NCBI GenBank assembly: GCA_965221125.1 | Contig: CBDCRW010000006.1 | Coordinates: forward strand, 512,001 to 576,000 | Reading direction: 5' to 3' | DNA: 64,000 nt | Origin: Alphaproteobacteria bacterium | GTDB lineage: Bacteria; Pseudomonadota; Alphaproteobacteria; UBA828 | Shown: piece after piece, positions 1 to 20,081 of the stretch | Numbering within the stretch: the stretch's first letter is position 1 | Layout: each line of letters starts with the position of its first letter | The notes under the pieces: model-generated | Seen by the model: the letters and a program-made list of their open reading frames with translations, nothing else | Databases searched by the model: none | Told to the model about the DNA's origin: nothing | Made by a program: the position numbers and the translations under genes

Positions 1-675
1 GATCTCGTGGGGCGTGCCCACCTGCCGGATCTCGCCCGCCGACATCACGGCGATGCGGTCCGACATCGTCAGCGCCTCCTCCTGGTCGTGGGTGACGAAG
101 ACGAAGGTGATGCCGGTGTCCTTCTGGATCTGCTTGAGCTCGATGCGCATGGCCTGGCGGAGCTTGAGGTCGAGCGCCGACAGCGGCTCGTCGAGCAGGA
201 GCACCTTGGGCCGGGGCGCCATGGCGCGGGCGAGTGCCACGCGCTGCTGCTGGCCGCCGGAGAGCTGTGCCGGCCTGCGCGCGGCGAGGTCGCCGAGCTT
301 CACCAGGTCGAGGATGCGCACCGTCTGGTCCTCGATGTCCGCCTTGCTCCAGCCGAGGCGGCGCATGCCGAAGGCCACGTTCTCCGCCACCGTCATGTGC
401 GGGAAGAGCGCGTAGTGCTGGAAGACCGTGTTGATCGGGCGCCGGTTGGGGGGCAGGTCGCCGAGATCCTCGCCGTAGAGGAGGATCTCGCCTTCGGTGA
501 TGTCCTCGAAGCCCGCGATGAGGCGGAGCAGCGTGGTCTTGCCGCAGCCGGAGGGGCCAAGCAGCGTGAAGAACTCGTTGTCGCGGATGGTGAGCGATGC
601 GCCGGCGAGCGCGGTCACCGGGCCGAACCGCTTGACGGCGTTGCGCACGTCGATGGCGATTGTCTGCTCGGTCAA
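1..675 (-). CDS. PotA-like polyamine ABC transporter ATP-binding subunit (5' part; runs off the window start)
   Basis: Translated by hand from TTG at 675 with a GGGAGAG RBS upstream: [18 protein letters not shown]...GPSGCGKTT (Walker A), [63 protein letters not shown]. Absent from the ORF track because there is no stop codon in the window. Confidence 0.88.
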
Positions 676-712: not shown

Positions 713-1657
713 CTACGCCTGGACGACCGGAATCTCGGGCCCGGTCAGGGTCCTGATCGCGTAGTCGGGCTCGTCGACCCGCGCGAACCCGACCCTCTCC
801 AGCCAGTCGTCCGTCGAAAGCGCGAGGATATCCGTATCCTCCGCGATGTTCCTGAACGCGCCGGTGGGCAGCGTCACGTAGGGCGCGCAGGCGAGCGCAC
901 AGCCCACGTGGTTCTTCGGGATGTGCGACGCCTTCCAGCCGATGTAGATCTTCCGGTAGCGCGCCCCCTGGTTCTCGCCGCAGAGGTAGGCCGCATAGGC
1001 GATCCTGTTGAGCCTCGCGTCGAGCCTGTCCCGCACGGCGTCCTCCTCGTCCGCCGCATGAGACATGATCCCTGTGTCTTCCATGAAGAGGCACGCGTGG
1101 TTGTCTCTGTCCTCGGCGATGGCGAAGCCGAGCGCGCACCAGATCCACATGTTGCCGTCGGAGACCGCGCTCGTGCGGTATTTTTCGGCGCAGACGACCA
1201 TCGCGCCCTCCTGCGGCGGGAAGTGCCGGCTGTCGGCCACGCCGAAGAGTTGCCGCGTCGCGTCCCGCAGGGGAATGAGGGAGTAGATCGGAATGTTCTC
1301 GATCCGCCCGACCGGATAAGTCTTGCCGATGCGGGAATCGATCGCGAGGTCGTAGCCCCAGATGGCGCCGTTGACGCCGCTGAAGGACGACGCCTGCAGC
1401 ATGTTGACCTGGCCGATGTATGAATCGTTACACTCGGCGCGGTCGTAGGACACGATCTCGGCCATGCCCTGGTCCAGGTCTTCCTCGAAGGGAAAGCCGG
1501 GGAACTGCTCCAGGTTCACGCTGCCCGTGGACAGCAGGACGGTCGAGACGTAGGCCCCCGGCTGCCCGGTCGCGGTGGGCTCCAGGTAGCCGCCGCAAGC
1601 GCTTTCCGTCGTGTTCCGGCAATTCCGAACGATCTCTGCCAGGCGTGCGTCAGTCAT
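713..1657 (-). CDS. hdcA: Pyruvoyl-dependent histidine decarboxylase proenzyme (HdcA-like)
   Basis: IVSYDRAE...[13 protein letters not shown] (Ser90-Ser91 self-cleavage site), RHFPP, VCAEK, FMEDTG and APYVTLP match the Lactobacillus HdcA motifs [36 protein letters not shown] and APYVSLP (recalled, not aligned by software). Confidence 0.85.
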
Positions 1658-1669
1658 CGCGTGCTCCCA

Positions 1670-2440
1670 TCAGCCCGTGAATCCGAGCCGCCTGCCGAGG
1701 TCGGCCGCCGCTGCCGACAGCTTCTCCCTGATCCGCGTGCGCGCCACGGGACGGAAGCGGTCGGCGAGGCCGGTGATGCCGACGGAATAGAGGACGTAGC
1801 CGCCGTTCACGCGGATCGGGTGGCCGTAGCTGAGCACGCCGGCGTCGAGCTCGTTGTCGCAGACCGCCATGCCGTCGGCGCGAATCTGACCGAGCTCGTC
1901 GCGGATCTCCGCGTCGTCCACTCTGGTCTTCTCGGTGTAGCGCTCGCGCGGGCGCGCGAGATAGCGGGCGACGAACTCCTCGTCCTGAAACGCGAGGATC
2001 GCCTTGCCCGAGGCGGCCGCGTGCAGCGGCAGCTGCCGGCCCGGCTGCACGAAGGCGCGATCGGAGCCCGAAGGCTGCTCCATCAGCACGGACTCGGCGA
2101 AGTCGCCGTTGAGCCGGGCCAGATGCGCGGTCTCGCCGAACGCCGCCACCAGCTCGTCGAGAACCGGCTTGGCGAGCCCCGCATAGCCCGCGCGGTCCAT
2201 GCTCGCATGCAGGAGGGACTGCAGCCGGGGCCCGGTCACGTAGCTCTTGGTCCCGGGCGCACTCCGCAGCAGGTCGAGGTCCACGAGGCCCCGGATCAGG
2301 CGATGCACCGTCCCCGGTTGCAGCGCCAGCTCCCGCGCGATGTCCGTGAGCGTGAGCCCGGTGCGCGCGGCGGCCACCGTCTCGAGCACGCGGACGTAGC
2401 GCCCGAGTGGCTTGTCGTTGCTATCGGTGCTATCGGCCAT
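1670..2440 (-). CDS. IclR family transcriptional regulator
   Basis: N-terminal HTH (LTLTDIARELALQPGTVHRLIRGL), FGETAHL, LPLHAAASGKAILA, ELDAGV effector domain. Confidence 0.92.
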   Translation of the reverse strand: MADSTDSNDKPLGRYVRVLETVAAARTGLTLTDIARELALQPGTVHRLIRGLVDLDLLRSAPGTKSYVTGPRLQSLLHASMDRAGYAGLAKPVLDELVAAFGETAHLARLNGDFAESVLMEQPSGSDRAFVQPGRQLPLHAAASGKAILAFQDEEFVARYLARPRERYTEKTRVDDAEIRDELGQIRADGMAVCDNELDAGVLSYGHPIRVNGGYVLYSVGITGLADRFRPVARTRIREKLSAAAADLGRRLGFTG

Positions 2441-2460: not shown

Positions 2461-4785
2461 TCATCGCGCGGCGGCGTGCTGCTGCAAGGCGCGGACCACG
2501 CGCTCCGGCGTGATCGGCATCTCGAAGACGCGCACGCCGATGGCGTCGGCGACGGCGTTGGCGATGGCGGGGGCCACGGCGGTCATGGCCGGCTCGCCGA
2601 TGCCCTTGGCGCCGAAGGGCCCGACCCCGCTGCGGGATTCGAGGACGATGCACTCGACGTTCGGCATGTCCATCGCCGTCGGCATCAGGTACTCGCTGAA
2701 CGACGGCGTGACCAGGCGGCCTTCCTCGTAGAGCATCTCCTCGCTGAGCGCGTAGCCTTGCCCGTTCTGCGCGCCGCCCTGGATCTGGCCTTCCACGGCG
2801 GACGGGTTGATGCACTGGCCGACGTCGTGGGCGGCGACGCTCTTCAGCACCTCGACCTCGCCGGTCTCCACGTCGACCGAGACCTCGACCGCGTGGGCGC
2901 CATAGGCGTAGTCGGGGTGGGCCTGGCCCTGGCCGGTCTCGGGATCCAGGAAGTCGCCGAAGGGCGCGCGGAAGATCGCGAGTTCCGAGCGGTGGATGCC
3001 CTCGGCCGCGCAGATGCGCACCAGATCGACCAGCGGCATGGTCTTCTCCGGCCGGTCGATGACGAAGACCTCGTTGAAGGCCATGTCGATCTCGTCCGGG
3101 GAGACGCCGAATTCCTGCGCCGCGCGTTCGGCGAGGCGGGCGCGAAGGCCCTCGGCCGCCTGCTTGGCGGCGTTGCCGGTCATGTAGAGCGCGCGCGTCG
3201 CCGTGGTGGTGCCGGCGAGCGGGGTGACGGCGGAATCGCTGTTGTAGGTGACCACGTTGTCGAGGGTGACGCCGAGCACCTCCACCGCGATCTGGCCCAG
3301 CGCCGAAATCTGGCCGGCGCCGATGTCAGTGACGCCGGAGCGCACCACGACGGTGCCGTCCATCTCGACGCCGACCCAGGCTTCCGAGGTGTCGTGCAGG
3401 AAGGTGAGGCGGCCGTAGCTCTGCTGATAGCAGGCGAGGCCGCGGCCGGTGCGGATCGGCCCCTCGGCTGGGGTGGGCGCGCCGAGGGCGGCCCAGGCCT
3501 GCTCCGCGCACTGCTCGGTCCAGATCGCGCTCGGCGGCACGAAGCCGGTGGACATGGGCTCGCCGGTCTTGAGGAAGTTGCGCCGGCGCACCTCCATCCG
3601 GTCGAGGCCGAGCGCGTTCGCGATCTCGTCCATCTGCTGCTCGTAGGCCGCGCAGGCCTGCAGCGCGCCGAAGCCGCGGAAGGCACTCGTGTACATGTTG
3701 TTGGTGGCGACGGCCTGGGCGAAGACGTTGAGGTTGTCGACACGGTAGGGGCCGGGGGCCGCGACCAGCGCGTAGAGGATGACGTAGGGGCTGAGGAAGA
3801 CGTAGGCGCCGGCGTCGGCGATCATCTTCACTTCGAGGGCTGTGATCTTGCCGTCCTTCGTGACGCCGGTGCGGTAGGTGAGGATGAACGGGTGGCGCTT
3901 GCCGTGGCCGACGAAGGAATCCTCGCGCGAGTATTCCAGCCGCACCGGCCGGCCGGTGTGCTTGGCCAGCAGCGCGAGGTAGACCTCGACGGTCAGGTCC
4001 TCCTTGCCGCCGAAGCCGCCGCCCACCAGCGCGCCCCGCACGCGGACCTTGTTGTGGGGCACGCCGATGGCGTCGGCGATGGGCCGAAAATGCTCGATCA
4101 CCTGGGTCGAGACGCGGATGTTCACCACGTCGTTCTCGTCCACCCAGGCGAGGCCCACCTCCGGCTCGAGGAAGGCGTGCTCCTGGAACGGGGTCTTGTA
4201 GGTGTGCTCGACGATCAGGTCGGCCACGCCGAAGCCGGCCTCGGCGTCGCCCTTCCTGATCCTGCGCTCGGCGACGATATTGTCCGAGCCGTAGACCAGA
4301 GGCGCGCCGGGCTTCAGCGCCTCCAGCGGGTCGTAGACGCCGGGGATCGGCTCCAGCTCGAACTCGATCAGCTCGGCCGCGTGGTCGGCGATGTCGCGGG
4401 TCTCGGCGGCGATCAGGGCCAGCGGCTCGCCGAAGTAGCGGACCCGGTCCTTCACCAGGATCGGCTGGTCGGTATCCAGCCTCTTGCGTCCGGTCTGGCC
4501 GGGGATGTCGGTGGCCGATGTGCGATCGGTGATGTCGGCGGCGGTCAGCACGCAGGCCACGCCCTTGAGCGCGCGCGCCCTGGAGACATCAAGGCGCACC
4601 AGACGGGCGCTCGCGATGTCGGCGCGGAGCACGCGCATGTGCAGCATGTTCGGCATCACGTAGTCGCCGGCATAGGGCGTGCGCCCCGTGACCTTGCCCG
4701 GCGCGTCGGTGCGGGTGAGCGGCTTGCCGATTTGCCGGTACTGGACGTTGGCCAGCGCGCCCGGATCGGTGTCGGTGTAGGTCAT
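2461..4785 (-). CDS. Xanthine dehydrogenase-family molybdopterin-binding large subunit
   Basis: Start moved to ATG 4785 (ATGA overlap with the upstream gene). Motifs KVTG..YAGD, QEHAFLEP, VGGGFGGK, SAFRGFG, AVEGQIQGG, GAKGIGEP. Confidence 0.92.
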   Translation of the reverse strand: MTYTDTDPGALANVQYRQIGKPLTRTDAPGKVTGRTPYAGDYVMPNMLHMRVLRADIASARLVRLDVSRARALKGVACVLTAADITDRTSATDIPGQTGRKRLDTDQPILVKDRVRYFGEPLALIAAETRDIADHAAELIEFELEPIPGVYDPLEALKPGAPLVYGSDNIVAERRIRKGDAEAGFGVADLIVEHTYKTPFQEHAFLEPEVGLAWVDENDVVNIRVSTQVIEHFRPIADAIGVPHNKVRVRGALVGGGFGGKEDLTVEVYLALLAKHTGRPVRLEYSREDSFVGHGKRHPFILTYRTGVTKDGKITALEVKMIADAGAYVFLSPYVILYALVAAPGPYRVDNLNVFAQAVATNNMYTSAFRGFGALQACAAYEQQMDEIANALGLDRMEVRRRNFLKTGEPMSTGFVPPSAIWTEQCAEQAWAALGAPTPAEGPIRTGRGLACYQQSYGRLTFLHDTSEAWVGVEMDGTVVVRSGVTDIGAGQISALGQIAVEVLGVTLDNVVTYNSDSAVTPLAGTTTATRALYMTGNAAKQAAEGLRARLAERAAQEFGVSPDEIDMAFNEVFVIDRPEKTMPLVDLVRICAAEGIHRSELAIFRAPFGDFLDPETGQGQAHPDYAYGAHAVEVSVDVETGEVEVLKSVAAHDVGQCINPSAVEGQIQGGAQNGQGYALSEEMLYEEGRLVTPSFSEYLMPTAMDMPNVECIVLESRSGVGPFGAKGIGEPAMTAVAPAIANAVADAIGVRVFEMPITPERVVRALQQHAAAR

Positions 4786-5270
4786 GGTGCGCCTCCTCCG
4801 GCGCGCATGTCGCCGGCGGCGTCGGCGATTGCCTCGAAGATCTTGGTGTAGCCGGTGCAGCGGCAGAGATTGCCGCTCAGCCCCAAGCGAATGTCGTCCT
4901 CGCTTGGCTGCGGATGCTCGTCGATGATCGCCTTGGCCGCGATGATGATGCCGGGAATGCAGTAGCCGCACTGCGCGGCGCCGCCGTCGGCAAACGCTTT
5001 CTGCAGGGGATGCGGCGAATCCAGGTCGCCGAGGCCGGAGACGGTGGTGACCTCCTTGCCCGCCGCCATCCAGGCAAGGGTCAGGCAGCTGTCCACGGCC
5101 ATGCCGTCCAGCAGCACGGCGCAGGCGCCGCAGTCGCCCTTCTCGCAGCCGCACTTCACCTCCATGTGGCCGAGCTGGCGCAGCGCCTCCAGCAGCGTGC
5201 GGTGGGCGGGGAAGCGGCCTTCCTCCTCGCGGCCGTTGATGCGGAGCGTGATGGTTCTCGTCTCAGGCAT
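4782..5270 (-). CDS. Molybdoenzyme 2x[2Fe-2S] small subunit (CoxS/XdhC type)
   Basis: KCGCEKGDCGACAV..DSC, QCGYCIPG and GNLCRCTGY. ATG 5270 follows a GGAG RBS; GTG 5279 is an alternative start. Confidence 0.93.
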   Translation of the reverse strand: MPETRTITLRINGREEEGRFPAHRTLLEALRQLGHMEVKCGCEKGDCGACAVLLDGMAVDSCLTLAWMAAGKEVTTVSGLGDLDSPHPLQKAFADGGAAQCGYCIPGIIIAAKAIIDEHPQPSEDDIRLGLSGNLCRCTGYTKIFEAIADAAGDMRAGGGAP

Positions 5271-6150
5271 GGGCGTCACTCCCTCGGGCCAGGCGGTTCC
5301 ACGCTTGCGTGACCAGGCGCCGGGTCAGGGCTTCCACCGTGTGGCGGCGGTAGCCGGCGGAGGCGCGGATGTCGTCGATGGGGCTGCATGTCTCCGCCGC
5401 CGCCGCCGCCGCCTCGTCGATGAGCGCGGGCGTGAGCGTCCGGCCCTCCAGCATCGCTTCCGCCTCCTTCACGCGGCGGACGTAGGGCGCGACGGAGGCA
5501 AGCGCGATCCGCGCCCTGGTGCAGGTGCCGTCCGCCACCGAGAGCGCCACCGCCACGCCGGTGACGGTGATCGCGTCGCCCTTGCGGCGCGCGAGCTTGT
5601 AGAAGGTGTCGGTGGAGTTCTCCGGCTGCTGCGGCCATGAGATGCGGGTGATCAGCTCGTCCGGCCGGCGCGCGTCCTCCTTGTAGCCGAGGTAGTAGTC
5701 GTCGAGCGCCAGCGTGCGCGTGCCGGACGCGCTGGCCAGCTCCAGCTCGGCGTCGAGCACGAGCAGCGGCGGCACGAGGTCGGCCGCCGGCGAGCCGCTG
5801 GCGATGTTGCCGGCGACCGTGCCCGTATTGCGCACCATCAGGCCGCCGAAGAGGCGCGCGGCGTCGATCAGCGACGGCGCCTCGCGCGCGATCTCGGGCG
5901 AGCGCAGCAGGTCGCTCACCGTGGTGCGGCTGCCGATGGCGATGCGCTCAGGACCGAAGGCCATGCCGAGCAGCGCGTCGACCTCGCCGAGGCCCACCAT
6001 CCGGTCGGGCCGCTCGCGCTTCGCGCGGATGTCGACGATGAGGTTCGTGCCGCCCGCGATGGGGAGCACGGTCTCGCCGGCCCCGTTCGCGAGCGCCGCC
6101 AGGGCGCCATCCAGGTCCGTCGGGATATCCAGTTCGAAGGGCGCGTACAT
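5263..6150 (-). CDS. Molybdoenzyme FAD-binding medium subunit (CoxM/XdhB type)
   Basis: AGGTNL, VRNTGTVAGNI, SPAADL, PIDDIRASAGYRR. No Cys-rich [4Fe-4S] insert. Confidence 0.92.
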   Translation of the reverse strand: MYAPFELDIPTDLDGALAALANGAGETVLPIAGGTNLIVDIRAKRERPDRMVGLGEVDALLGMAFGPERIAIGSRTTVSDLLRSPEIAREAPSLIDAARLFGGLMVRNTGTVAGNIASGSPAADLVPPLLVLDAELELASASGTRTLALDDYYLGYKEDARRPDELITRISWPQQPENSTDTFYKLARRKGDAITVTGVAVALSVADGTCTRARIALASVAPYVRRVKEAEAMLEGRTLTPALIDEAAAAAAETCSPIDDIRASAGYRRHTVEALTRRLVTQAWNRLARGSDAHA

Positions 6151-6178: not shown

Positions 6179-6961
6179 CTACACGTCCCAGCCGCCGTCG
6201 ACGGTGATGGCCTGGCCGGTGATCTGGCGGCTCTCCTCGCTCGCCATGAACAGCACGGCGTCGGCCACGTCCTGGCAGGTGGTGACGCGCTTCAAGCACA
6301 TCTCCTGAACGTACTCGTCGTACACCTCGTCGATGGTCCAGCCGCGCACGCGGGCCTTCTCCTCGCAGAGCTTCTGCATGCGGGGCGTCTCGACGATGCC
6401 GGGGCAGACCGCGTTGACGTTGACGTTGTACTTGCCGACCTCGAGCGCCACCGTGCGCGTGATCCCGCGCACCGCCCACTTGGACGCGCTGTAGGCGGTG
6501 CGCATGGCGTAGCCGCGCAGGCCCGACGTGCCGCCGATGTTGACGATCTTGCCGCTCCGCTGCGCGATCATGGTCGGCACCACGTACTTGATGGGCAGGA
6601 AGGTGCCGATCTCGTTGTTTCGGATGACGTAGTCGAAGTCGGCCACGTCGATGTCCTGCACAGGCGTCTCGATGGGGCCGGTGACGCCCGCGATGTTGAC
6701 CAGGATGTCGATGCGCCCGTCGAAGACCGCGCGCGCCTGCTCGACCATCGCCTTGACCTGCCCATCGTCGGTGACGTCGCAGCCCACGACATGGGCCGCC
6801 CGCCCCAGCGCACGCACGTCCGCCGCGACCGGGGCGAGCGCGTCCGTATCCCGCGCGGTCAGCACGACGTCCGCGCCCTCGCGCGCGAGCGTGGTCGTGA
6901 TCGCCGCGCCCATGCCCTTCGCCGCGCCGGTGACGATCGCCTTCTTGCCATCCACTCTCAC
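6179..6961 (-). CDS. Short-chain dehydrogenase/reductase (SDR)
   Basis: GTG start overlapping the upstream stop; TGAAKGMG, NIAG, YSASK, VNAVCPG, ITVDGG. The 973-aa ORF in the track is over-extended at its 5' end. Confidence 0.92.
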   Translation of the reverse strand: MRVDGKKAIVTGAAKGMGAAITTTLAREGADVVLTARDTDALAPVAADVRALGRAAHVVGCDVTDDGQVKAMVEQARAVFDGRIDILVNIAGVTGPIETPVQDIDVADFDYVIRNNEIGTFLPIKYVVPTMIAQRSGKIVNIGGTSGLRGYAMRTAYSASKWAVRGITRTVALEVGKYNVNVNAVCPGIVETPRMQKLCEEKARVRGWTIDEVYDEYVQEMCLKRVTTCQDVADAVLFMASEESRQITGQAITVDGGWDV

Positions 6962-8574
6962 TGCATCGTTCCCTTGCTTGTTTGGCTCGTTGTCGCGGGC
7001 TCTCCGTAGCCGCCGCCGCCGCAGCTCTCGACGATCACCACGTCGTCCCTGCCGAGCCGCAGGTTGGCCTTGCCCGGCATGTCCTCGCGGCGGCCGTCGG
7101 CATGCGCGACGGTGACCCGGAAGGGCGCGCCGTCCTCGCCGCCCTGCAGGCCGTAGGGCGGCACCACGCGGCGCTCGAACATCGAGGTGACCGACATCTC
7201 GTCGGCGAGCACGCGGTATTCGCGGTGCAGGCCCTCGCCGCCCCGCCGGCGGCCGGCGCCGCCGGAGTCCGCGCGCAGGCGCTGGCACTCGATGCGGATG
7301 GGGAACTCGGCCTCCACCACCTCGGCCGGCGTGTTCATCACGTTGGACATGTGAACGCGCACCACCGGCGCGCCGTCGCGGTCGTGGCGTGCACCTTCGC
7401 CGCCGCCGTGGACCTCGTAGAGCGTGGTCCAGGCGCCGTCCGCGCGCCTTCCGCCGAAGAGCACGAGGCCGGACGTGGTCGGCCCGCCGGCGGAAATGCG
7501 CTCCGGCCCCACGGCCTCGAAGGCGCGGAACACGGCGTCGGCAATCCGCTGCGAGGTCTCGTGGTTGCCGCCCACCACGGGGCTTTCTGCAGACGGATCG
7601 AGCAGGGAGCCGGGGCGCGTCACGATCTCCAGCGGGCGGTAGCAGCCGCCGCTCGGCTGGATGTCGGGCCCGAACAGGGTCTTGACCACGTAGAAGACCG
7701 AGGCCGCGGCGATGAAGGGGGTGGTGTTCACGGGGCCCCGCGCGGCGTCCTCGGTCGCGGAGAAGTCGAAGCGCGCGCCGTCGCCGGCGATGGTGACGCG
7801 CACGCGCACGGCGACCGGCCCGCCGCCGCCGGCATCGTCGTCGAGCCAGTCCTCGCCCTCGTAGGTGCCGTCCGGAACGGCGGCGAGCGCCGCCCGCATT
7901 TGCGCCTCGGCCCGGTCGTGGATCGCGGCGACGGCGGCCAGCACCGTTTCCCGCCCGTGCTCGGCGCAGATGTGGTGGATGCGCTCCTCGGCGGCGCGGC
8001 TGGCCGCGACCTGCGCCAGGATGTCGCCCTCGCGCTCGTCCGCGCCCCGCACGTTGGCGCAGACCATGTCCAGCTTCTCGCGGTCGGGGCCGGAGGCGGT
8101 GAAGAGGCGGAAGGGCGGGATGCGCAGGCCCTCCTGCCAGGCGTCGGTGGCGCCGGCCACATAGCTGCCGGGCACCGCGCCGCCGATATCCGCCCAGTGG
8201 GCGAGGCTCGCGGCGAAGGCCACGATCCGGTCGTCCACGAAGATCGGGCGGATCGCTTTCACGTCCGGCAGGTGGTTGCCGCCCACCTCCGGCAGGTTCA
8301 GGAACCAGACGTCGCCGGGCTCCAGGCGGTCCCTGGGCACGCGCTTCAGGAACTCGCGGACGGTGAAGCTCATGACCCCCATGTGCATGGGGATGTCGCG
8401 GCCCTGGGCGATGAGGTGGCCGTCGGCATCGGTGAGCGCCGAGGAAAGATCGCCGGCCTCGCGCAGGAGCGGCGAGCGGGCCGAGCGCATGACCACGAGC
8501 GACATTTCCTCCGCCGTCGCCGTCAGCGCGTGGCGGATGACCTCCAGGGTGATCGGGTCGACGGTGCGGCTCAT
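6958..8574 (-). CDS. Hydantoinase B / 5-oxoprolinase family subunit
   Basis: DPITLEVI, RSARSPLLRE..DLS, GGNHLPD, AHWADIGG, NTPAEVVE, DSGGAG, CGGGGYG. ATG 8574 overlaps the upstream stop. Confidence 0.92.
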   Translation of the reverse strand: MSRTVDPITLEVIRHALTATAEEMSLVVMRSARSPLLREAGDLSSALTDADGHLIAQGRDIPMHMGVMSFTVREFLKRVPRDRLEPGDVWFLNLPEVGGNHLPDVKAIRPIFVDDRIVAFAASLAHWADIGGAVPGSYVAGATDAWQEGLRIPPFRLFTASGPDREKLDMVCANVRGADEREGDILAQVAASRAAEERIHHICAEHGRETVLAAVAAIHDRAEAQMRAALAAVPDGTYEGEDWLDDDAGGGGPVAVRVRVTIAGDGARFDFSATEDAARGPVNTTPFIAAASVFYVVKTLFGPDIQPSGGCYRPLEIVTRPGSLLDPSAESPVVGGNHETSQRIADAVFRAFEAVGPERISAGGPTTSGLVLFGGRRADGAWTTLYEVHGGGEGARHDRDGAPVVRVHMSNVMNTPAEVVEAEFPIRIECQRLRADSGGAGRRRGGEGLHREYRVLADEMSVTSMFERRVVPPYGLQGGEDGAPFRVTVAHADGRREDMPGKANLRLGRDDVVIVESCGGGGYGEPATTSQTSKGTMQ

Positions 8575-10586
8575 GGCGCGGCCCCGGTGGCGATGTGGAG
8601 GTGGCCGGCGTCGTCGGCCGTGAGCGTGGCACCCGGCGGCACGACCACGGTCGACCATTCATCGTCGACGATGACCGGCCCTTCCAGCGGCCAGTCGGCG
8701 CCCAGGGCGGCGCGGTCGTAGCGCGGCGTCGGCAGCGGCGCGCCGGTATCGAACGTGGCCGGCAGCGTGCGCGCAGGCGACGGCGGCTCGTTGGCCTTGG
8801 GCGCCGGAGCACGTGCCTCGCCGTTGCGGGGCGCGGAGACGCGCACGCGGATCGAGACCAGCTCCCACGGCTCCTCCGTGGCGAAGCCGTAGAGAGTCCG
8901 GTGGCGCTCCATGAAATCCCGGCCGAGCCGCGCGGGATCGTCGAAGGCGGGGGTCGCGATCTCGATGGCGTAGCTCTGGCCCCGGTAGCGGATCGAGGCG
9001 ACCTCCTCGACCGCCAGATTGCCGTTGCCGTGACCGGCCGCCCTGAGCGGCGCGGCGAGGGTCGCATGCAGCGCCCGCCGTGCCTGGTCCACGCGCGCAC
9101 CGTCCCACGCGTCCGACGCCACGCGGAGCGTGCGCTGCTGCGCGTAGCTCATCTCCGCGCCGACGCAACCCAGAGCCGAGAACATGCTGGAATGGGCGGG
9201 CACGACCACGTGCGCGATGGAGAAGGCGCGGGCCAGCGCCACCGCGTGCATGGGGCCGGCGCCGCCGAAGGCGAGCAGGGTGCACGCCCGCCCGTCGACG
9301 CCGCGCTCCACGGTGACGCGCCGCAGCGCGCGCAGCATGGCCGCGTTCGCCACCCTGACGACGCCCAAAGCCGCAGCCTCCGGCGTCATGTCCATGGCTG
9401 TGGCGAGCGGCGCGATCGCGTCACGGGCCGCGCCGGTATCGAGGTGCACGTTGCCGCCGAGGACGCGCCCCGCCTCCATGTAGCCCAGCACCAGGTTGGC
9501 GTCGGTCACGGTCGGCCGCGCGCCGCCCTTGCCGTAGCAGGCGGGGCCCGGCACCGCGCCGGCGCTCTCCGGCCCCACCGCAAGCGAGCCGTGATCGAGC
9601 CGGGCGATGGAGCCGCCGCCGGCGCCGATGGATTCCACCGCGACCATGGGCTGGCGTAGCGGCCGGCCGCCCAAGGAGCGGTCGGCGGAAATCTGCGCCT
9701 CGCCGTCCGCGATCAGGCAGACATCGGTGGTGGTGCCGCCCATGTCGAAGCTGATGGCGCGCTCGAGCCTAAGCGCGCGGGCCATGCTGCCAGCGGCGGC
9801 GACGCCGGCGGCAGGACCGGAGGCGGCGAGGCCCAAGGGAAGGTCGCGCAAGGCCTCGGGCGAAGCCATGCCGCCGGCGGAATGGAAGAGGTGCAGGCGG
9901 GAGTCTTCGGGCTTCGCGCTCTCCAGGTCGTCCATGTACGCGGCCGCGAGCGGCATGACGCCTGCGCTCAGCGCCGTGGTTGCCGTCCGCTCGTACTCGC
10001 GGGCCTCGGGATTGACCCGGTGCGAGAGGGCGACGAAGGGGAAGCGCTCGCCGAGCCGGGCGCCCAGCGCCTCCTCGTGCGCGGGATTGGCGTAGGAATG
10101 GAGCAGCGAGACGGCCACCGCCTCCGCGCCGCTCGCCTCGATGCGGGCGATGGCGTCCTCCACCGAGGCCGGGTCCAGCGCGGCCATGACCCTGCCGTCG
10201 TGGTCGAGCCGCTCGCTCACCTCGAAGCGGCGCTCGGGCGGCACCTGGGGTGCCAGCTTGGGCGCGAGATCGAGCCGGTAGAGGTGGCGGCGGTTCTGGC
10301 GCCCGATGGCGAGCGTGTCTGCGAAGCCGCGCGTCGCGATCAGGGCGACCTTCGCGTGGTCGTCCTGGACGATGGCATTGGTGACGATGGTGGTGCCGTG
10401 GATCAGGTCGTCCACGTCGGCCCACGCGAGATCCACCGCGCCGAGCGCAGACAGCAGGCCGGTGATGCGGTCGTCGGTGCGGGAGGGAACCTTCGCGGCC
10501 CGCACCTCGCCGCGCGCCCGGTGCACGGCGATCACGTCGGTGAACGTGCCACCCACATCGATACCGACTTGCCATCCATGCGGCAT
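8571..10586 (-). CDS. Hydantoinase A / 5-oxoprolinase family ATP-binding subunit
   Basis: GIDVGGTFTD, HGTT, SGPAAG, DMGGTTTD, IGAGGGS, GPESAGAVPGPACY, AFGGAGPMHA. Confidence 0.93.
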   Translation of the reverse strand: MPHGWQVGIDVGGTFTDVIAVHRARGEVRAAKVPSRTDDRITGLLSALGAVDLAWADVDDLIHGTTIVTNAIVQDDHAKVALIATRGFADTLAIGRQNRRHLYRLDLAPKLAPQVPPERRFEVSERLDHDGRVMAALDPASVEDAIARIEASGAEAVAVSLLHSYANPAHEEALGARLGERFPFVALSHRVNPEAREYERTATTALSAGVMPLAAAYMDDLESAKPEDSRLHLFHSAGGMASPEALRDLPLGLAASGPAAGVAAAGSMARALRLERAISFDMGGTTTDVCLIADGEAQISADRSLGGRPLRQPMVAVESIGAGGGSIARLDHGSLAVGPESAGAVPGPACYGKGGARPTVTDANLVLGYMEAGRVLGGNVHLDTGAARDAIAPLATAMDMTPEAAALGVVRVANAAMLRALRRVTVERGVDGRACTLLAFGGAGPMHAVALARAFSIAHVVVPAHSSMFSALGCVGAEMSYAQQRTLRVASDAWDGARVDQARRALHATLAAPLRAAGHGNGNLAVEEVASIRYRGQSYAIEIATPAFDDPARLGRDFMERHRTLYGFATEEPWELVSIRVRVSAPRNGEARAPAPKANEPPSPARTLPATFDTGAPLPTPRYDRAALGADWPLEGPVIVDDEWSTVVVPPGATLTADDAGHLHIATGAAP

Positions 10587-10637: not shown

Positions 10638-10810
10638 GATGCGCCCGCGCGGCGGCGCCTGTCAACATTAAATCGGGCTGTTCCTGGCGGATCGAACGCT
10701 TGGGTGCGACACAGGCCGTGACCCTGGTGAGAATTGCGGGCTGACGACGGCAAAAATACACTGTGCGGCGGCGGTCGCGCGTCAGGCGGCCGGCTCCCGC
10801 ATGGCGAGGG

Positions 10811-11833
10811 ATGGGGATGACCTGGCTCGACGACAGCGCGTGGCGCTACTTCTGGCACCCGGTCTGCACGCTCGTGGAACTCGACGCGGCCGCCGCCGAG
10901 AGCCGGCCGCTCGCGGTCACGCTGCTCGGCGAGCCGCTCGCCGTCGCCCGGATCGCCGGCACCGTCGCCGCCTTCCCGGACCGCTGCATCCATCGCTCGA
11001 CCCGTCTCACGGTGGGCTGCGTGGAGACGGGCGGGCTGCGCTGCGCCTACCACGGCTGGCTCTACGATGCGGACGGCGCGTGCGTCGAAATCCCCGCCAT
11101 GCCGGACTTCACGATCCCGCCGAGCTTCCGGCTGCGCAGGATCGAGGCGGAGATGGCCTACGACCTCGTCTGGCTGCGCCTCGAGGCGGGCGCCGGGACG
11201 CGCATTCCCGGATGCCCGGCCTGGAGCGACGACGCCTTCCGCTGCGTCCAGGGCGAGCCCTACATCTGGCCGACATCGGCCGGGCGCCGGCTGGAGAATT
11301 TCGTCGACCTCGCGCACTTCCCGTTTGTCCACGACGGCTCGCTCGGCGACCGCCGGCACGCGACCGTGCCGATCGCGGACGTCGCCCGCGTCGGCGGCGA
11401 GCTGCGCTTCCGCTTCGAGCCGGAGCCGGACATGGCGCTGCCCGACGTCGCCCTGATGGCGCCGACGGACTACCGCCTCTGGATGCCGTTCACGGTCAAC
11501 CTGGAATTCGCCTTCGCGGACGGCGAGCGCGGCCAGCTCTGGATGGCGGCGTCGCCGGTCGAGTCCGGGACCTGCCGCAGCTTCTGGTTCACGAGCCGCA
11601 CCGCCGACAGGGACGGCGACGACCGCCCGCACCTCGATTTCCAGGATCTCGTGCTGGGCGAGGACCTCCCGGTGATCGAGGCGCAGGAGCCGCCGGAGAT
11701 TCCGGGTCCGGGCGGCGAGAAGTCCGTGCCGACCGACGCGGTCTCGCTGGCCTATCGCCGCTGGCTGCGCGAGCTCTCCGCCGCCGCCGGGAAGGGGGCT
11801 GCGGCGGTGGCACGGAGTCTGTCCTCCGAATAG
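10811..11833 (+). CDS. Rieske non-heme iron oxygenase alpha subunit (VanA/demethylase-like)
   Basis: Rieske motif DRCIHR...CAYHGW and mononuclear Fe motif ENFVDLAHFPFVH; C-terminal EDLPVIEAQ. Start is ATG 10811 or 10817. Confidence 0.9.
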   Translation: MGMTWLDDSAWRYFWHPVCTLVELDAAAAESRPLAVTLLGEPLAVARIAGTVAAFPDRCIHRSTRLTVGCVETGGLRCAYHGWLYDADGACVEIPAMPDFTIPPSFRLRRIEAEMAYDLVWLRLEAGAGTRIPGCPAWSDDAFRCVQGEPYIWPTSAGRRLENFVDLAHFPFVHDGSLGDRRHATVPIADVARVGGELRFRFEPEPDMALPDVALMAPTDYRLWMPFTVNLEFAFADGERGQLWMAASPVESGTCRSFWFTSRTADRDGDDRPHLDFQDLVLGEDLPVIEAQEPPEIPGPGGEKSVPTDAVSLAYRRWLRELSAAAGKGAAAVARSLSSE

Positions 11834-11897
11834 CGGCCTCGGGAGCGACTTTTTCTTATCCCTCAATCGGCGGGCGCTCGCTCCGCTCGCTTGCCTA

Positions 11898-11946
11898 CGC
11901 GCCTTCGGCGCGCGGCGCGGTCGCGCCGTCCGGGCCTGCGGCCCGG
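11898..11946. repeat. Cluster of three abutting GC hairpins (REP-like)
   Basis: CGCGCC-TTC-GGCGCG, CGGCGCG-GT-CGCGCCG, CCGGGCC-TGC-GGCCCGG. Confidence 0.5.
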
Positions 11947-12200
11947 GCGAAACCGGGCGGCTCTTCATGTCACGCCCGCGAGCTTTCAGGCGCGGGCGAC
12001 GCACCATGGTGCGGTGGAAGGCGGGGGCGGAGCGGGGCAGTCTCGGTGGATGCGGTGTGTGGACCATGAGCTCGGCGACGTGCGAAGACGCCGTCAGCGC
12101 GGCCTGTCGGCGCATGAAAGCGCGGGATGCGGAGGACGAATCAGGCCGGCGGGACCCTCGGCGCGAGGGGGACGCGCGGCCGGGTGGCGGCCCTGGACGG

Positions 12201-12360
12201 GCCAGCTTGGGCCATCATGCGCCACCTTGTGCCACCTTGTGCCACCTTGTGCCACCTTGTGCCACTTTGTGCCACTTTGTGCCACTTTGTGCCGCTCGTT
12301 TTGTGCCACCTTGTCCCACTTTGTGCCACTTTGTGCCGGCGTATGCCGGAATATGCCGGG
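12201..12360. repeat. 10-bp tandem repeat array (GCCACYTTGT)n
   Basis: Seven consecutive units at 12221-12290, about three more after a 4-bp phase shift, and degenerate units at both ends. Confidence 0.95.
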
Positions 12361-12376
12361 TTAAGGCCTTTGTCGC

Positions 12377-13096
12377 TCACGGCAGCCGGTCGTCCTGCGA
12401 TTCCGCCGCCCTGTTCGTGCGCTCCAGGTGCTTGAGCGCCTCGCGCCGGCTGAGCGCGGAGAGCCCGGCGTGGCGTCGGACGAACGCCGTCACCCACTCC
12501 GGGTCGGTCTTGGAATACTCGCGGAGCGCCCAGCCGATGCCCTTGCGCAGGAAGAATTCCGGCTCGCCGATGGAGGGGCGGATTACATCGGCCAGAAGCT
12601 CGGTGTCCGTCGCCTCCCTGGCCCGGAGCTGGGCGAGGATCGCGGTCCGCCGCTTCCAGATGTCGCCGTCATGCGCCCAGTCGCGCAACACCGCCTTCAT
12701 CGGGCGTGGATGGGCGGCGAGCATGGCGCCGACGCCGCGCCCGGCAATCGCGTCCACGTAGTCCCACCAGGCGCCGGTCACCACCAGCTCCTCGACCAGC
12801 GGAAGCCTCGCGGGCTCGAGCCAGCGCGCGTAAGCGCCGAAGAGCAGAAGCTCGACCGCCGCGTAGCGTTCCTCCCGGTGGGCGGCGTTGCGCCAGAGGT
12901 CGAGAATTGCCGCCTCCCAGGTACCGGCGTCCGGCAGCGGGTGCGCCCTGAACACGGAACCCGCGATGCGCCGGCACTGCGGCACGCCCACGCCGAAGAA
13001 GGGTATGGCGGACTTCATGTACGCCTGCTGCTGCGGCGCCCTGGCCGGATCGGCGGCCTTGCGCAGGGCGGCTATGACGGCCCCTCGAACGGTCAT
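12377..13096 (-). CDS. DNA alkylation repair protein (AlkD-like HEAT-repeat glycosylase family)
   Basis: AYMKSAIPFFGV, REERY, WWDYVD, WKRRTAI, EFFLRKGIGWALREYSK, LSRREALKHL. Confidence 0.88.
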   Translation of the reverse strand: MTVRGAVIAALRKAADPARAPQQQAYMKSAIPFFGVGVPQCRRIAGSVFRAHPLPDAGTWEAAILDLWRNAAHREERYAAVELLLFGAYARWLEPARLPLVEELVVTGAWWDYVDAIAGRGVGAMLAAHPRPMKAVLRDWAHDGDIWKRRTAILAQLRAREATDTELLADVIRPSIGEPEFFLRKGIGWALREYSKTDPEWVTAFVRRHAGLSALSRREALKHLERTNRAAESQDDRLP

Positions 13097-13269
13097 CGCA
13101 AATCCTGGCCGACCCGGCGACGGCGGGCAACCCGAGCCGGCGGCAGCGCGCAACGTTGCCTGGGCGGGCGAGGCGCACTAGCGTCTGCGCGCCGACCCGG
13201 GCTCGTGGGCGAATGCGGCTTCGGGCGTCGGCGCGAGCGAATCGAGGGAAAGAGGACGGAGCGAGGTCA

Positions 13270-14271
13270 ATGGAGAAGCTACGCGTCGGCGTGATCGGGG
13301 TCGGCTGGTTCGGGACGGTGCATTGCCGGGTCATCGCCGGCCATCCCGAGCTTGAGCTTTCTGCGCTTTGCGACGCGTCGGAAGAGCGCCTCGCGGAGAT
13401 GGCGCGCGAGCACGGCGTGGCCCGCACGTGTGCGGACTATCGCGAGCTCGCGGAAGACCCGGCGATCGACATTCTCGCCGTCATCACGCCCTGGGACCAC
13501 CACGCCGCGCCCACGCTCGCGGGGCTCGCGGCCGGCAAGCACGTCCTGGTCGAGAAGCCGATGGCATCGACGGTGGAGGAATGCCGGCGCATGTGCGATG
13601 CCGCGCGCGAGGCGGACGCCTTCCTGATGGTGGGTCACGTCTGCCGCTTCAACCCGCGCTACGTCTCGGCCAAGCGCGAGATCGACGCGGGCCGGATCGG
13701 CAAGGTGGTGGCGATCAACGCCCGGCGCAACGTGCCGGCGCGGTGGGTCATCGAGCAACTCGAGAGCATCGGCCCCATCCTGCACACGTGCTCGCACGAC
13801 ACGGACCTGATGCGCTGGCTCACCGGCTCGCACGTCGTGAGCACCTACGCGCAGACGGTCAACACGCTGGGACAGGCGTACGACGACCTGTCTCATGTGA
13901 TGTATCGCTTCGAGAGCGGCGCGACCGCGATGTACGAAGGCGCCTGGTGCATGCCGGACACCTCGCCCTTCGAGCTCGACGAGCGCATGTCGGTGATCGG
14001 CACCGAGGGCTTCATCCAGATTCAGGACACCTTCCCCAACATCGGCGTGGCCTCGAAAGAGGGTTTTTTGAGCCCCGACACGAGCTACTGGCCGGAGCTG
14101 CACGGCGTCACCGGCGGCGCGCTCAGGGACGAATGGTCGTACTTCGCCCGCTGCATCGCAGACGGCACGGCGCCTTCGGTCATCAGGCCGGAGGAGGCGA
14201 TGGAGGTCGTGCGGACCGTGCTGGCTGCGCATGAATCGGCGACTACCGGCAGAGTGGTGACGGTTGCCTGA
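13270..14271 (+). CDS. Gfo/Idh/MocA family NAD(P)-dependent oxidoreductase
   Basis: VGVIGVGWFG, GKHVLVEKPMA, VGHVCRFNP, HDTDL. Confidence 0.92.
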   Translation: MEKLRVGVIGVGWFGTVHCRVIAGHPELELSALCDASEERLAEMAREHGVARTCADYRELAEDPAIDILAVITPWDHHAAPTLAGLAAGKHVLVEKPMASTVEECRRMCDAAREADAFLMVGHVCRFNPRYVSAKREIDAGRIGKVVAINARRNVPARWVIEQLESIGPILHTCSHDTDLMRWLTGSHVVSTYAQTVNTLGQAYDDLSHVMYRFESGATAMYEGAWCMPDTSPFELDERMSVIGTEGFIQIQDTFPNIGVASKEGFLSPDTSYWPELHGVTGGALRDEWSYFARCIADGTAPSVIRPEEAMEVVRTVLAAHESATTGRVVTVA

Positions 14272-14277
14272 TGCGGG

Positions 14278-15195
14278 CTAAGTCTCCGCTTGCGCCGCCG
14301 GCTGGCGGCGGGCCGCGTGGATCAGGAGCGCAACGCCCGCCAGCATCAGCACGGCGGCGGCCCAGACGTAGGCGCTGTGGCGCTCGCTGAAGAAGAGGAT
14401 GCCCCAGCCGAGGCCCGCCACGACGACGACGTAGTTGAACTGCGAGAAGAACACCGGGCCGGCCGCGCGCACGATGATCAGGAACGTGATGTACATGGTG
14501 ATGGTGACGCCGGCGGCGCCGAGGATCGCGAGGTCGGCGACGGTGTCCGGCCCCGGCACCACGTAGGTCTCGCCCAGCCCGAGCATCACCGGGGCCAGCA
14601 TGATGGCCGCTGCCGTCACGATGCCGCTCGCAAACGTCAGCACCGGCGTTTCCGGCGGGTCGATCAGGGCGGCGAGGTTGTTGGTGAGCGCAAAGCAGGC
14701 CGGTGCAAGCAGGGCGAGCAGGAACCAGCCCACCATGCCGGGCTCCGGCAGGGAGAACGTGGGGATCGTCATCAGCAGGATGCCGCCCACCCCGCACAGC
14801 ACGCCGATCAGGCTGAGCGCGCGTATCCGCTCCAGCCGGAGCGTGAGCGCGATCAGGTAGGTGATCGGGGGCGACAGGATCACCACCATGGAGAGGATGC
14901 CGGTCGGCAGCTTCGGCGCGAGCCAGGTCATGAGCGCGACAGGTGCTGCGATGCCAAACAGCCCGATCACGAAATAGGCCGTGAGGTGCCGGGCTTCCAG
15001 CCGCGGGAGCGCGCGCCGCCAGGCTGCGAGGATCAGCAGCAGGACCGCGGCGCCGAGGGTCTGCCAGAAGGTGAAGGCGAGCGGCGGCGTTCCGGCCTCC
15101 ACCGCGATCTTGTTCATGGTGAAGATGAGCGGATAGACCGCCCCGATCGTGAACAGCAGGAAGATCGGGAGGGAAAGCGGCCCGCGGCGCCCCAT
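14278..15195 (-). CDS. DMT/EamA family transporter
   Basis: About ten hydrophobic segments with two-fold repeat; LRLER and GWGILFFSER motifs. Confidence 0.88.
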   Translation of the reverse strand: MGRRGPLSLPIFLLFTIGAVYPLIFTMNKIAVEAGTPPLAFTFWQTLGAAVLLLILAAWRRALPRLEARHLTAYFVIGLFGIAAPVALMTWLAPKLPTGILSMVVILSPPITYLIALTLRLERIRALSLIGVLCGVGGILLMTIPTFSLPEPGMVGWFLLALLAPACFALTNNLAALIDPPETPVLTFASGIVTAAAIMLAPVMLGLGETYVVPGPDTVADLAILGAAGVTITMYITFLIIVRAAGPVFFSQFNYVVVVAGLGWGILFFSERHSAYVWAAAVLMLAGVALLIHAARRQPAAQAET

Positions 15196-15223
15196 CGGGC
15201 TTGAAGGCTAGGGGGTTACAGGA

Positions 15224-16027: not shown

Positions 16028-16081
16028 GGGCCGCTCCCCTCTATGCCTTGCACGCAAATTGCGCCGACAGCGGCGGGTGCG

Positions 16082-17020: not shown

Positions 17021-17036
17021 GCGCGATCCTCCGGCG

Positions 17037-19031: not shown

Positions 19032-19165
19032 CGCGCTCACCATTGGGGTTTCGGCCGCAAGCCGGCGGCGCGCGCCGCTCAAGGCTTGGCCGGCAACGAT
19101 AGCACCAACTGCCCCCACAGGTTTTCGTGGACATCGCCGCGCCGGCATGACATCAGGCACGCACC

Positions 19166-20077: not shown

Positions 20078-20081
20078 GACC

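Follow-up and report, generated by a model that had tools for sequence, protein, structure and literature searches.

The stretch of DNA analysed here (the window) comprises 64,000 nucleotides of contig CBDCRW010000006.1, from an assembly of an Alphaproteobacteria bacterium that is 92% complete with 5.8% contamination, and carries near its left edge a gene for a pyruvoyl-dependent histidine decarboxylase (HDC). Annotation of the first 11.8 kb of the window, together with 13 kb of the same contig to the left of its edge (20 kb across the edge), placed this gene in an array of 13 genes on one strand, which encode, in order, the A and B subunits of a hydantoinase-type enzyme, a short-chain dehydrogenase/reductase (SDR), the FAD, Fe–S and molybdenum (Mo) subunits of a Mo-hydroxylase, an IclR-family regulator, HDC, PotA, PotB, PotC, PotD and a histamine dehydrogenase homologue (Table 1). 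The HDC is itself an ordinary, though divergent, member of its family, and public annotation already shows such proteins in alphaproteobacteria. The new element is its context, pointing to the recruitment of a pyruvoyl HDC to a cluster for the uptake and oxidation of histamine, for catabolism rather than for secretion.

There is little doubt that the open reading frame encodes a pyruvoyl HDC, as proposed in the initial annotation. The Pfam profile PF02329 (HDC; histidine carboxylase PI chain) matches it over profile positions 16–292 of 294 with an E-value of 6.3e-46 and a score of 157.3 bits (cut-off 25), and TIGR00541 (histidine decarboxylase, pyruvoyl type) matches it with an E-value of 2.5e-45 and 154.9 bits. 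A phmmer search against the sequences of the PDB matched the Lactobacillus 30a enzyme alone, in both of its chains (1hq6/1pya), and identity to the characterised plasmid-borne hdcA genes is 28–33%. The start codon is preceded, 6 nt upstream, by a Shine–Dalgarno-like GGGAG motif. The gene evolves under purifying selection, with ratios of nonsynonymous to synonymous substitution (dN/dS) of 0.08–0.23 against four orthologues. The G+C content around it is lower (0.66), which raised the suspicion of a recent horizontal transfer; this was rejected on account of its G+C content at third codon positions (GC3) of 0.90, which resembles that of the neighbouring genes (0.89–0.97).

The cleavage motif and the active-site residues are in place. 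A phmmer alignment pairs residues 61–90 of HDC with residues 52–81 of the Lactobacillus 30a β-chain, so that Ile68, Tyr71, Asp72, Glu75 and Ser90 correspond to Ile59, Tyr62, Asp63, Glu66 and Ser81, and Phe92 is aligned with residue 2 of the α-chain, which is Phe83 of the Lactobacillus enzyme. Ser90-Ser91-Phe92 thus aligns with Ser81-Ser82-Phe83, and the Ser-Ser site is invariant in all 20 sequences of a family alignment spanning 36–94% identity. The constant offset of nine residues noted in the initial annotation holds up to Phe92; beyond this point insertions and deletions change it. The more distal equivalents named there are nevertheless present and, counted along the alignment, are Lys159 (in the motif VCAEK) for Lys155, Phe191 and Glu193 (FMED) for Phe195 and Glu197, and Tyr260 (APY) for Tyr262. 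We take Ile59, Tyr62, Asp63, Glu66, Phe83, Lys155, Phe195, Glu197 and Tyr262 to have substrate-binding or catalytic roles in the Lactobacillus enzyme; their counterparts here are invariant across the 20 sequences, with the exception of Phe191, which shows conservation of at least 90%. Acid pH activates the Lactobacillus enzyme, and of the aspartates that presumably form this switch Asp53 and Asp198 correspond to Asp62 and Asp194 here, while Asp54 is replaced by Gln63 and is not kept.

Cleavage at the predicted site would yield a β-chain of residues 1–90 (9.72 kDa) and an α-chain of residues 91–314 (24.79 kDa). An AlphaFold2 model of HDC (mean predicted local distance difference test, pLDDT, 80; predicted template-modelling score, pTM, 0.84) found as its best Foldseek match in the PDB chain B of 1pya, with an E-value of 2.9e-14, a template-modelling score (TM) of 0.80 on the target and a root-mean-square deviation of 2.3 Å over 223 columns; the matches ranking after 1pya were pyruvoyl arginine decarboxylases. 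HdcA of Lactobacillus 30a and other lactic acid bacteria (EC 4.1.1.22) and the protein encoded here therefore have in common their Pfam family, the Ser-Ser motif, the active-site residues and the predicted fold.

Downstream of HDC the array continues with a PotABCD-type ATP-binding cassette (ABC) system. The potA gene begins 37 nt after the HDC stop codon, has its own ribosome-binding motif (GGGAGAGG) and encodes a protein that matches NF006987 of NCBIfam with an E-value of 1.3e-120 and TIGR01187 with 373 bits, above the cut-off of 355.6. The PotD-like protein aligns to Escherichia coli PotD (E-value of 1e-57) and has a hydrophobic N-terminal leader; from these two features the system is taken to be an importer. 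The last gene of the array, beyond which the genes run in the opposite direction, encodes a protein that matches, end to end, the histamine dehydrogenases of Nocardioides simplex (3k30; E-value of 4.9e-266) and of Rhizobium sp. 4-9 (6de6; 1.1e-262), and is much farther from trimethylamine dehydrogenase (2e-161) and from dienoyl-CoA reductase. It retains the Cys35 that links flavin mononucleotide, the Fe–S cysteines Cys348, Cys351, Cys354 and Cys366 and the positions of the Tyr/His/Asp triad. Of the eight residues proposed to form the histamine site, as listed in the available text of PMC10180351, six are kept (Gln65, Ile74, Phe77, Glu79, Trp267 and Asp358).

The initial annotation had described the gene as lacking its usual partners. 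This stands for the classical antiporter, HdcB and HisRS: the genes annotated between 13 kb to the left and 11 kb to the right of HDC include no antiporter, exporter, APC permease, hdcB or hisS, and a Tetragenococcus HdcB query found nothing at an E-value of up to 1 in the whole 92%-complete genome, in a single search run without a positive control. It does not stand for partners in general, given the PotABCD system and the dehydrogenase homologue, which lie partly past the window edge.

Upstream of HDC the genes follow one another on the same strand with gaps of 12–37 nt or with overlaps. The stop codon of the IclR-type gene lies 12 nt before the HDC start, and both this junction and the 37-nt junction with potA contain a ribosome-binding motif; the spacing of the genes suggests that HDC is co-transcribed with its neighbours. 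A scan of the left half of the array for promoters and terminators was uninformative, with no promoter-like site and two terminator-like sites, where shuffled sequences gave an expectation of 3.1. The regulator adjoins the cluster in all nine closely related loci described below and also in a genome whose array lacks HDC. The co-directional array opens with the hydantoinase pair, which additionally matches PF01968 and PF05378, and the best solved relative of its A subunit is the N-methylhydantoinase 7hk5 (E-value of 8.7e-108). The SDR exceeds no equivalog cut-off of NCBIfam. A substrate was also sought for the Mo-hydroxylase, and its assignment was abandoned on account of NCBIfam matches that all fall below equivalog cut-off and of nearest solved relatives of mixed function (4-hydroxybenzoyl-CoA reductase, nicotinate dehydrogenase, aldehyde oxidoreductase and xanthine dehydrogenase). 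Just past the divergently transcribed Rieske oxygenase gene, at window positions 12201–12358, there is an intergenic tandem array of about 13 copies of a 10-nt unit with the consensus GCCACCTTGT and an 83% match.

Table 1. Position of the array genes, their neighbour and related features. Unprefixed positions are those of the window; positions preceded by an L number are those of the locus so named.
Feature	Position	Strand	Remarks
Histamine dehydrogenase homologue	L002 12569-14641	same as HDC	690 aa; contig positions 506572-508641; left of window
PotD-like binding protein	L002 14761-15798	same as HDC	left of window
PotC-like permease	L002 15838-16659	same as HDC	left of window
PotB-like permease	L002 16661-17587	same as HDC	left of window
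PotA-type ABC ATPase, 5' part (225 codons)	1..675	minus	full gene 362 aa, L002 17587-18675
Pyruvoyl-dependent histidine decarboxylase proenzyme	713..1657	minus	ATG start, 314 aa; PF02329, TIGR00541
Codons of Ser90-Ser91, predicted serinolysis site	1385..1390	minus	S81/S82 in Lactobacillus 30a HdcA
IclR-family regulator	1670..2440	minus	PF01614 E 5e-29; PF09339 E 9e-11
Mo-hydroxylase, xanthine-dehydrogenase family, three subunits	2461..6150	minus	MoCoBD_1/2, Fer2_2, FAD_binding_5
Mo-hydroxylase subunits	Mo 2461-4803; 2Fe-2S 4782-5279; FAD 5263-6150	minus	
Short-chain dehydrogenase/reductase	6179..6955	minus	258 aa; NCBIfam SDR families, best E 5.9e-65
ATP-dependent hydantoinase/oxoprolinase-family pair	6958..10586	minus	B 6958-8658 (PF02538 E 6e-180); A 8571-10586
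Rieske oxygenase	10763-11833	opposite to array	next gene upstream, divergently transcribed
TGL gene upstream of HDC (HDC at ~10001)	L017 8742-9989; L020 8589-9944; L023 8678-9967; L048 8384-9922		
DUF885/S10 or phospholipase-B-like contexts	L053 11034-14032; L058 11242-13973; L014 10909-13974; L097 8595-9995		

This gene content makes it reasonably likely that the array serves a catabolic route from histidine through histamine to imidazole acetaldehyde, combined with the scavenging of histamine. By homology, the cytoplasmic 34.5-kDa proenzyme would undergo self-cleavage at the Ser90-Ser91 bond, leaving Ser91 converted to the pyruvoyl cofactor at the N terminus of the α-chain, and the mature enzyme would convert L-histidine of intracellular origin to histamine and CO2. 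External histamine would be bound in the periplasm by the PotD-like protein and imported by PotABC, and its oxidation by the histamine dehydrogenase would yield imidazole-4-acetaldehyde and ammonium and feed electrons into the respiratory chain. HDC would in this way open a histamine-utilisation cluster to histidine. More speculatively, the upstream Mo-hydroxylase, SDR and hydantoinase-type genes could process the imidazole product further.

The distribution of the array was assessed in a public scan, with one genome per species, that returned 150 stretches encoding HDC relatives; these were reduced to 79 distinct loci, which were searched by tblastn with 13 neighbour proteins. The array is common to nine of the 79, namely the nine closest (83–96% identity), and no match to the dehydrogenase at an E-value of up to 1e-10 was found in the other 70. 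All nine come from metagenome-assembled genomes (MAGs) titled Rhodospirillales or Alphaproteobacteria bacterium, in agreement with the alphaproteobacterial origin assumed in the initial annotation. HDC was found in 15 of 20 genomes of other species of the genus to which the window belongs, and in none of 40 genomes outside it (16 from other genera of the family and 24 from more distant relatives). Its acquisition probably dates back to the base of the genus or close to it.

Four layouts of the cluster occur within the genus: HDC precedes the importer in one and follows the dehydrogenase in another, the third lacks the dehydrogenase, and the fourth, seen in one genome (G008), lacks HDC. The usual order is IclR-HDC-potABCD-dehydrogenase; in L010/G024 it is IclR-potABCD-dehydrogenase-HDC, with HDC directly after the dehydrogenase. 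G008 has the entire array except HDC, and the approximately 85 bp of intergenic DNA that lead from the IclR gene to potA hold no remnant of it. Because HDC occupies two positions and is missing from an otherwise intact array, it is a movable accessory gene that has joined a cluster for amine uptake and oxidation and is still linked to it in both positions. The linkage is kept in 15 of the 16 HDC-bearing genus genomes in which neighbouring DNA or coordinates permit a call. A dehydrogenase copy of at least 85% identity lies within about 6 kb of HDC in seven of 16 HDC-bearing genomes; in two others contig ends block the call.

Two further observations concern gene copies in the genus. One of the seven genomes with a nearby dehydrogenase (G007) has two copies of the HDC-pot-dehydrogenase cluster (C7:4497-11546 and C2:170292-177344), with HDCs 96% and 87% identical to that of the window; its estimated contamination is 7%, and instead of a duplication the copies may reflect the binning of two strains into one genome. 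Five genus genomes (G001–G005) each have 8–13 matches to the trimethylamine/histamine dehydrogenase family at an E-value of up to 1e-50, and this number of paralogues suggests a broad amine-oxidising repertoire in the genus.

The wider pyruvoyl HDC family is small, since a HMMER search of 1.8 billion representative proteins retrieved only 282 clusters at an E-value of up to 0.001. A quick maximum-likelihood tree of 92 rows (42 named sequences and the best-scoring 50 of 104 length-filtered representatives), midpoint-rooted for drawing only, recovers the HDCs of the genus as a clade with a Shimodaira–Hasegawa-like approximate likelihood-ratio test (SH-aLRT) support of 100. This clade lies within a clade of 11 rows (SH-aLRT 100) that includes a low-GC group and an alphaproteobacterial MAG (L013), and which in turn groups with the characterised hdcA of Firmicutes, from Tetragenococcus, Lactobacillus reuteri and Staphylococcus capitis plasmids, with a support of 92. 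The low-GC sister group includes one public copy labelled Theionarchaea and three metagenome loci, two of which have HDC beside a pyruvoyl arginine decarboxylase and the third beside phospholipase-B-like and tyrosine-decarboxylase-like genes, the latter of the pyridoxal phosphate (PLP) type. No transporter or dehydrogenase occurs at these three loci, which indicates that the wider clade did not inherit the catabolic context from its ancestor. In L013, the nearest bacterial outgroup, HDC is 43% identical and has within 9 kb a class-III aminotransferase, an aldehyde dehydrogenase and a Pot-like transporter. An amino-acid permease of the classical type adjoins HDC in a Bacteroides (L031) and an Acidimicrobiaceae (L066) genome, as it does on the Firmicutes plasmids. 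HDC homologues are named in public records of Yoonia, Palleronia, Roseibium, Thalassococcus, Alloyangia, Salipiger, Rhizobium and Methylocystis.

Other entries to histidine breakdown were sought in the same genomes. Urocanase (HutU; TIGR01228), matched in six of 14 control genomes, gave no match in the source genome, and the model of histidase (HutH) matched there only fragments of 80 and 63 bits (cut-off 539). HDC is the sole recognisable entry to histidine breakdown found in this 92%-complete genome, which does not prove the absence of others. HutU was likewise without a match in 13 of the 15 HDC-bearing genus genomes searched, and the HDC-less G008 has one; across the family, four of 40 other genomes matched and 36 did not.

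Records from the environment connect the locus with sponges. Eight runs labelled as sponge metagenomes, from three studies (P2, P3 and P6), contain 26–48% of the sampled words of a 7.5-kb stretch, figures that leave out four runs of one further study, the probable source of the sequence. A 1,193-nt contig from one sponge run spans potA-HDC-IclR with 54 differences, indicating that relatives with the same layout occur in that sample. Short contigs assembled from three runs labelled as metatranscriptomes cover parts of the dehydrogenase, potB/C/D and HDC, and one of 213 nt, from a coral run, spans the IclR–HDC junction; with about 88–97% identity, they derive from relatives. These contigs were considered as evidence of expression and set aside, given that they show neither transcription, strand nor a single transcript and that the libraries may contain DNA.

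Several points weigh against a catabolic role in the degradation of histidine. The source genome is an assembly of 92% completeness with 5.8% contamination. The TIGR00541 score of HDC falls below the equivalog cut-off of 346.65, which makes the protein a clear but divergent member of the pyruvoyl HDC family, with a substrate that is not guaranteed. The binding protein of the importer is PotD-like, and histamine is its presumed ligand. The dehydrogenase differs at the other two of the proposed histamine-site residues (Asn115 to His and Tyr181 to Leu), and the characterised histamine dehydrogenases also oxidise agmatine and putrescine, according to the available part of PMC10180351. Seven of the 16 genomes with HDC lack a dehydrogenase in the array, and their best copy, 74% identical, lies elsewhere. 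The 13-gene array holds no aldehyde dehydrogenase, so the fate of imidazole acetaldehyde is not settled by the array. Finally, Hut is missing from most of the family regardless of HDC; rare as it is family-wide, its absence is background and neither compensation nor proof of replacement.

An alternative is that HDC has the same fold but a different substrate, another amino acid or a modified histidine, with the cluster importing and oxidising the matching amine, for example agmatine, putrescine or methyl-histamine. Consistent with this are the missed equivalog cut-off, the low identity to characterised hdcA, the polyamine-type transporter, the two substitutions at specificity-linked positions of the dehydrogenase, the acceptance of agmatine and putrescine by its characterised relatives (PMC10180351, as far as available) and the 8–13 paralogues per genome of the dehydrogenase family. 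However, all of the histidine-contacting residues of the Lactobacillus enzyme are kept in HDC and, apart from Phe191, are invariant in the family, the dehydrogenase is much nearer to two histamine enzymes than to trimethylamine dehydrogenase, and the clade groups with the characterised hdcA of Firmicutes. A change of substrate is considered unlikely.

Of the two forms of repurposing put forward in the initial annotation, catabolism fits the evidence and histamine production towards a host is little supported, the locus having an importer and neither an exporter nor an antiporter. That histamine made by HDC leaves the cell to signal to an animal host or to neighbouring microbes is nevertheless in keeping with the sponge-metagenome runs of three studies, with the seven genomes that have no dehydrogenase in the array and with the proposal, in the accessible text of PMC10570526, that sponge symbionts produce histamine as a signal to their host, by means of a PLP-type HDC. 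Yet the sole transporter among the annotated neighbours is a binding-protein-dependent importer, a histamine-oxidising enzyme belongs to the same array in seven genomes and once directly adjoins HDC, and family members that secrete histamine carry an amino-acid permease beside HDC, as in Bacteroides, Acidimicrobiaceae and the Firmicutes plasmids, all of which renders signalling very improbable. Very unlikely, too, is a chance insertion of HDC into a permissive intergenic site of a cluster for unrelated amines or N-heterocycles, in which HDC serves, for example, cytoplasmic proton consumption or the supply of histamine for a secondary metabolite: HDC is cleanly present or absent between the IclR gene and potA and its contexts differ in other clades (a TGL gene and a regulator in roseobacters, DUF885 and S10 proteins in Chlorobium and Nocardioides, and insertion sequence (IS) elements on plasmids), but its linkage is kept in nearly all callable genomes and on either side of the importer and dehydrogenase genes, its composition has been ameliorated, purifying selection acts on it, and the spacing of the genes suggests co-transcription.

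The preferred reading, the breakdown of histidine by way of histamine, can be extended to the whole array, which would then constitute a complete and undescribed route from histidine and histamine to metabolites of the aspartate family in a sponge-associated alphaproteobacterial genus mostly without Hut matches. In such a route the Mo-hydroxylase would oxidise the aldehyde, hydroxylate the imidazole ring with oxygen derived from water, or both; the SDR would complete the oxidation to a hydantoin-type ring (5-carboxymethylhydantoin), and the ATP-dependent N-methylhydantoinase-like pair would open the ring to N-carbamoyl-aspartate. This extension is rather doubtful; only constant linkage and the affinity to N-methylhydantoinase tie the Mo-hydroxylase, SDR and hydantoinase genes to imidazoles. 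If true, it would be an oxygenase-independent alternative to the HinF monooxygenase branch of Pseudomonas, and pyruvoyl HDCs would gain their first catabolic role.

Pyruvoyl HDCs are known for antiporter-coupled secretion of histamine and for acid resistance, in food spoilage and in histamine producers of the gut. The hdcA genes of Tetragenococcus and L. reuteri adjoin the antiporter hdcP, the maturase hdcB and hisS, whereas HDC is here accompanied by an importer and a histamine dehydrogenase. The initial annotation regarded the enzyme as one of Gram-positive bacteria and unusual in a proteobacterium, a view repeated in the available text of a 2021 review (PMC8231116). It has been overtaken by the public alphaproteobacterial homologues and by a survey of the same year that, in its accessible part, reports pyruvoyl hdcA from six phyla, Proteobacteria among them, and counts it in every case jointly with an antiporter (PMC8465708). 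The operons of that survey, as far as its available text goes, are defined by an adjacent antiporter (gadC, aaxC or adiC), and the locus described here, having none, would not be counted in it. In a mostly open-access literature no description was found of an HDC homologue within a histamine-dehydrogenase or ABC-importer cluster, nor any report of a histamine dehydrogenase beside a histidine decarboxylase, co-mentions of the two concerning mostly food, fermentation and biosensors; a search on imidazoleacetate, hydantoinase and molybdenum yielded nothing relevant. The refuting case named in the initial annotation, that proteobacterial homologues are already well characterised in this setting, thus did not arise in these searches.

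The nearest functional parallel is the hin pathway of Pseudomonas, in which, according to the accessible part of PMC8231116, histamine is taken up and its amino group oxidised to give imidazole acetaldehyde, and which leads through imidazole-4-acetate to aspartate by means of the HinA permease, the HinC aminotransferase, the HinD aldehyde dehydrogenase and HinFLHG. The proteins differ: hin relies on an APC permease and an aminotransferase for its first step, while the array has a PotABCD-type ABC system and a dehydrogenase, along with the Mo-hydroxylase, SDR and hydantoinase pair, and in the same text the hin genes are described without a histidine decarboxylase. None of the domain types of HinA, HinC and HinD occurs in the 13-gene array (homologues of HinFLHG were not searched for). 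Should the catabolic reading be true, bacteria can degrade histidine via histamine, with decarboxylation as the first catabolic step, and surveys that equate hdcA with a histamine producer mistake histamine sinks for sources, which matters for telling the makers of biogenic amines from the removers in communities that live with animals, sponges for instance. It would also supply a candidate ABC-type system for histamine uptake that can be put to the test, with the upstream genes pointing to an oxygenase-independent route of imidazole ring opening.

Other loci of the family show HDC in different company. At L013 (10974-16289 and about 16617-20400) HDC is convergent with genes for DUF1028, RidA, M20 peptidase, aldehyde dehydrogenase, aminotransferase and Pot-like ABC proteins, enzyme types that match those given for the Pseudomonas histamine pathway in the available text of PMC8231116; this may be a second, aminotransferase-based amine catabolic locus linked to HDC, and offers an independent parallel to the array. 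In roseobacters a TGL-family gene (protein-glutamine γ-glutamyltransferase; PF20085) directly precedes HDC in four of four loci scanned, and a divergent gene for a regulator of 1100–1350 residues with BTAD and AAA_16 (and TPR) domains lies near HDC in five of five. A transglutaminase beside a histamine-making enzyme suggests the attachment of the amine to a protein or peptide. In Chlorobium and Nocardioides, genes for a DUF885 protein and for a serine carboxypeptidase of the S10 family come after HDC, and in a Nitrospirota MAG it adjoins a phospholipase-B-like gene, as in one low-GC metagenome contig.

Three members of the family (P0100, P0119 and P0045) have N-terminal extensions of 40–80 residues that resemble export signals, that of P0045 with a twin-arginine-like RR-F-L-K motif, which hints at periplasmic or secreted homologues of pyruvoyl HDC. 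On plasmids of Rhizobium leguminosarum (L092 8962-9954) and Methylocystis (L093 7890-8873), HDC homologues occur singly between IS elements and transposases with no transporter nearby, an arrangement consistent with a gene that moves as a single cassette.

The 74%-identical dehydrogenase copy was inspected at one locus, L100 (genome G002), where it lies beside putA, amidase and glutathione S-transferase genes; nothing among these neighbours is specific to histamine. At the same locus (11225-17171) putA appears to be split, as if by an insertion, into a part encoding the DNA-binding and proline dehydrogenase (PRODH) regions (16086-17171) and a part encoding the Pro_dh and Aldedh domains (11225-14029), between which a gene for DruA and DDE_Tnp_1-associated domains runs in the opposite direction.

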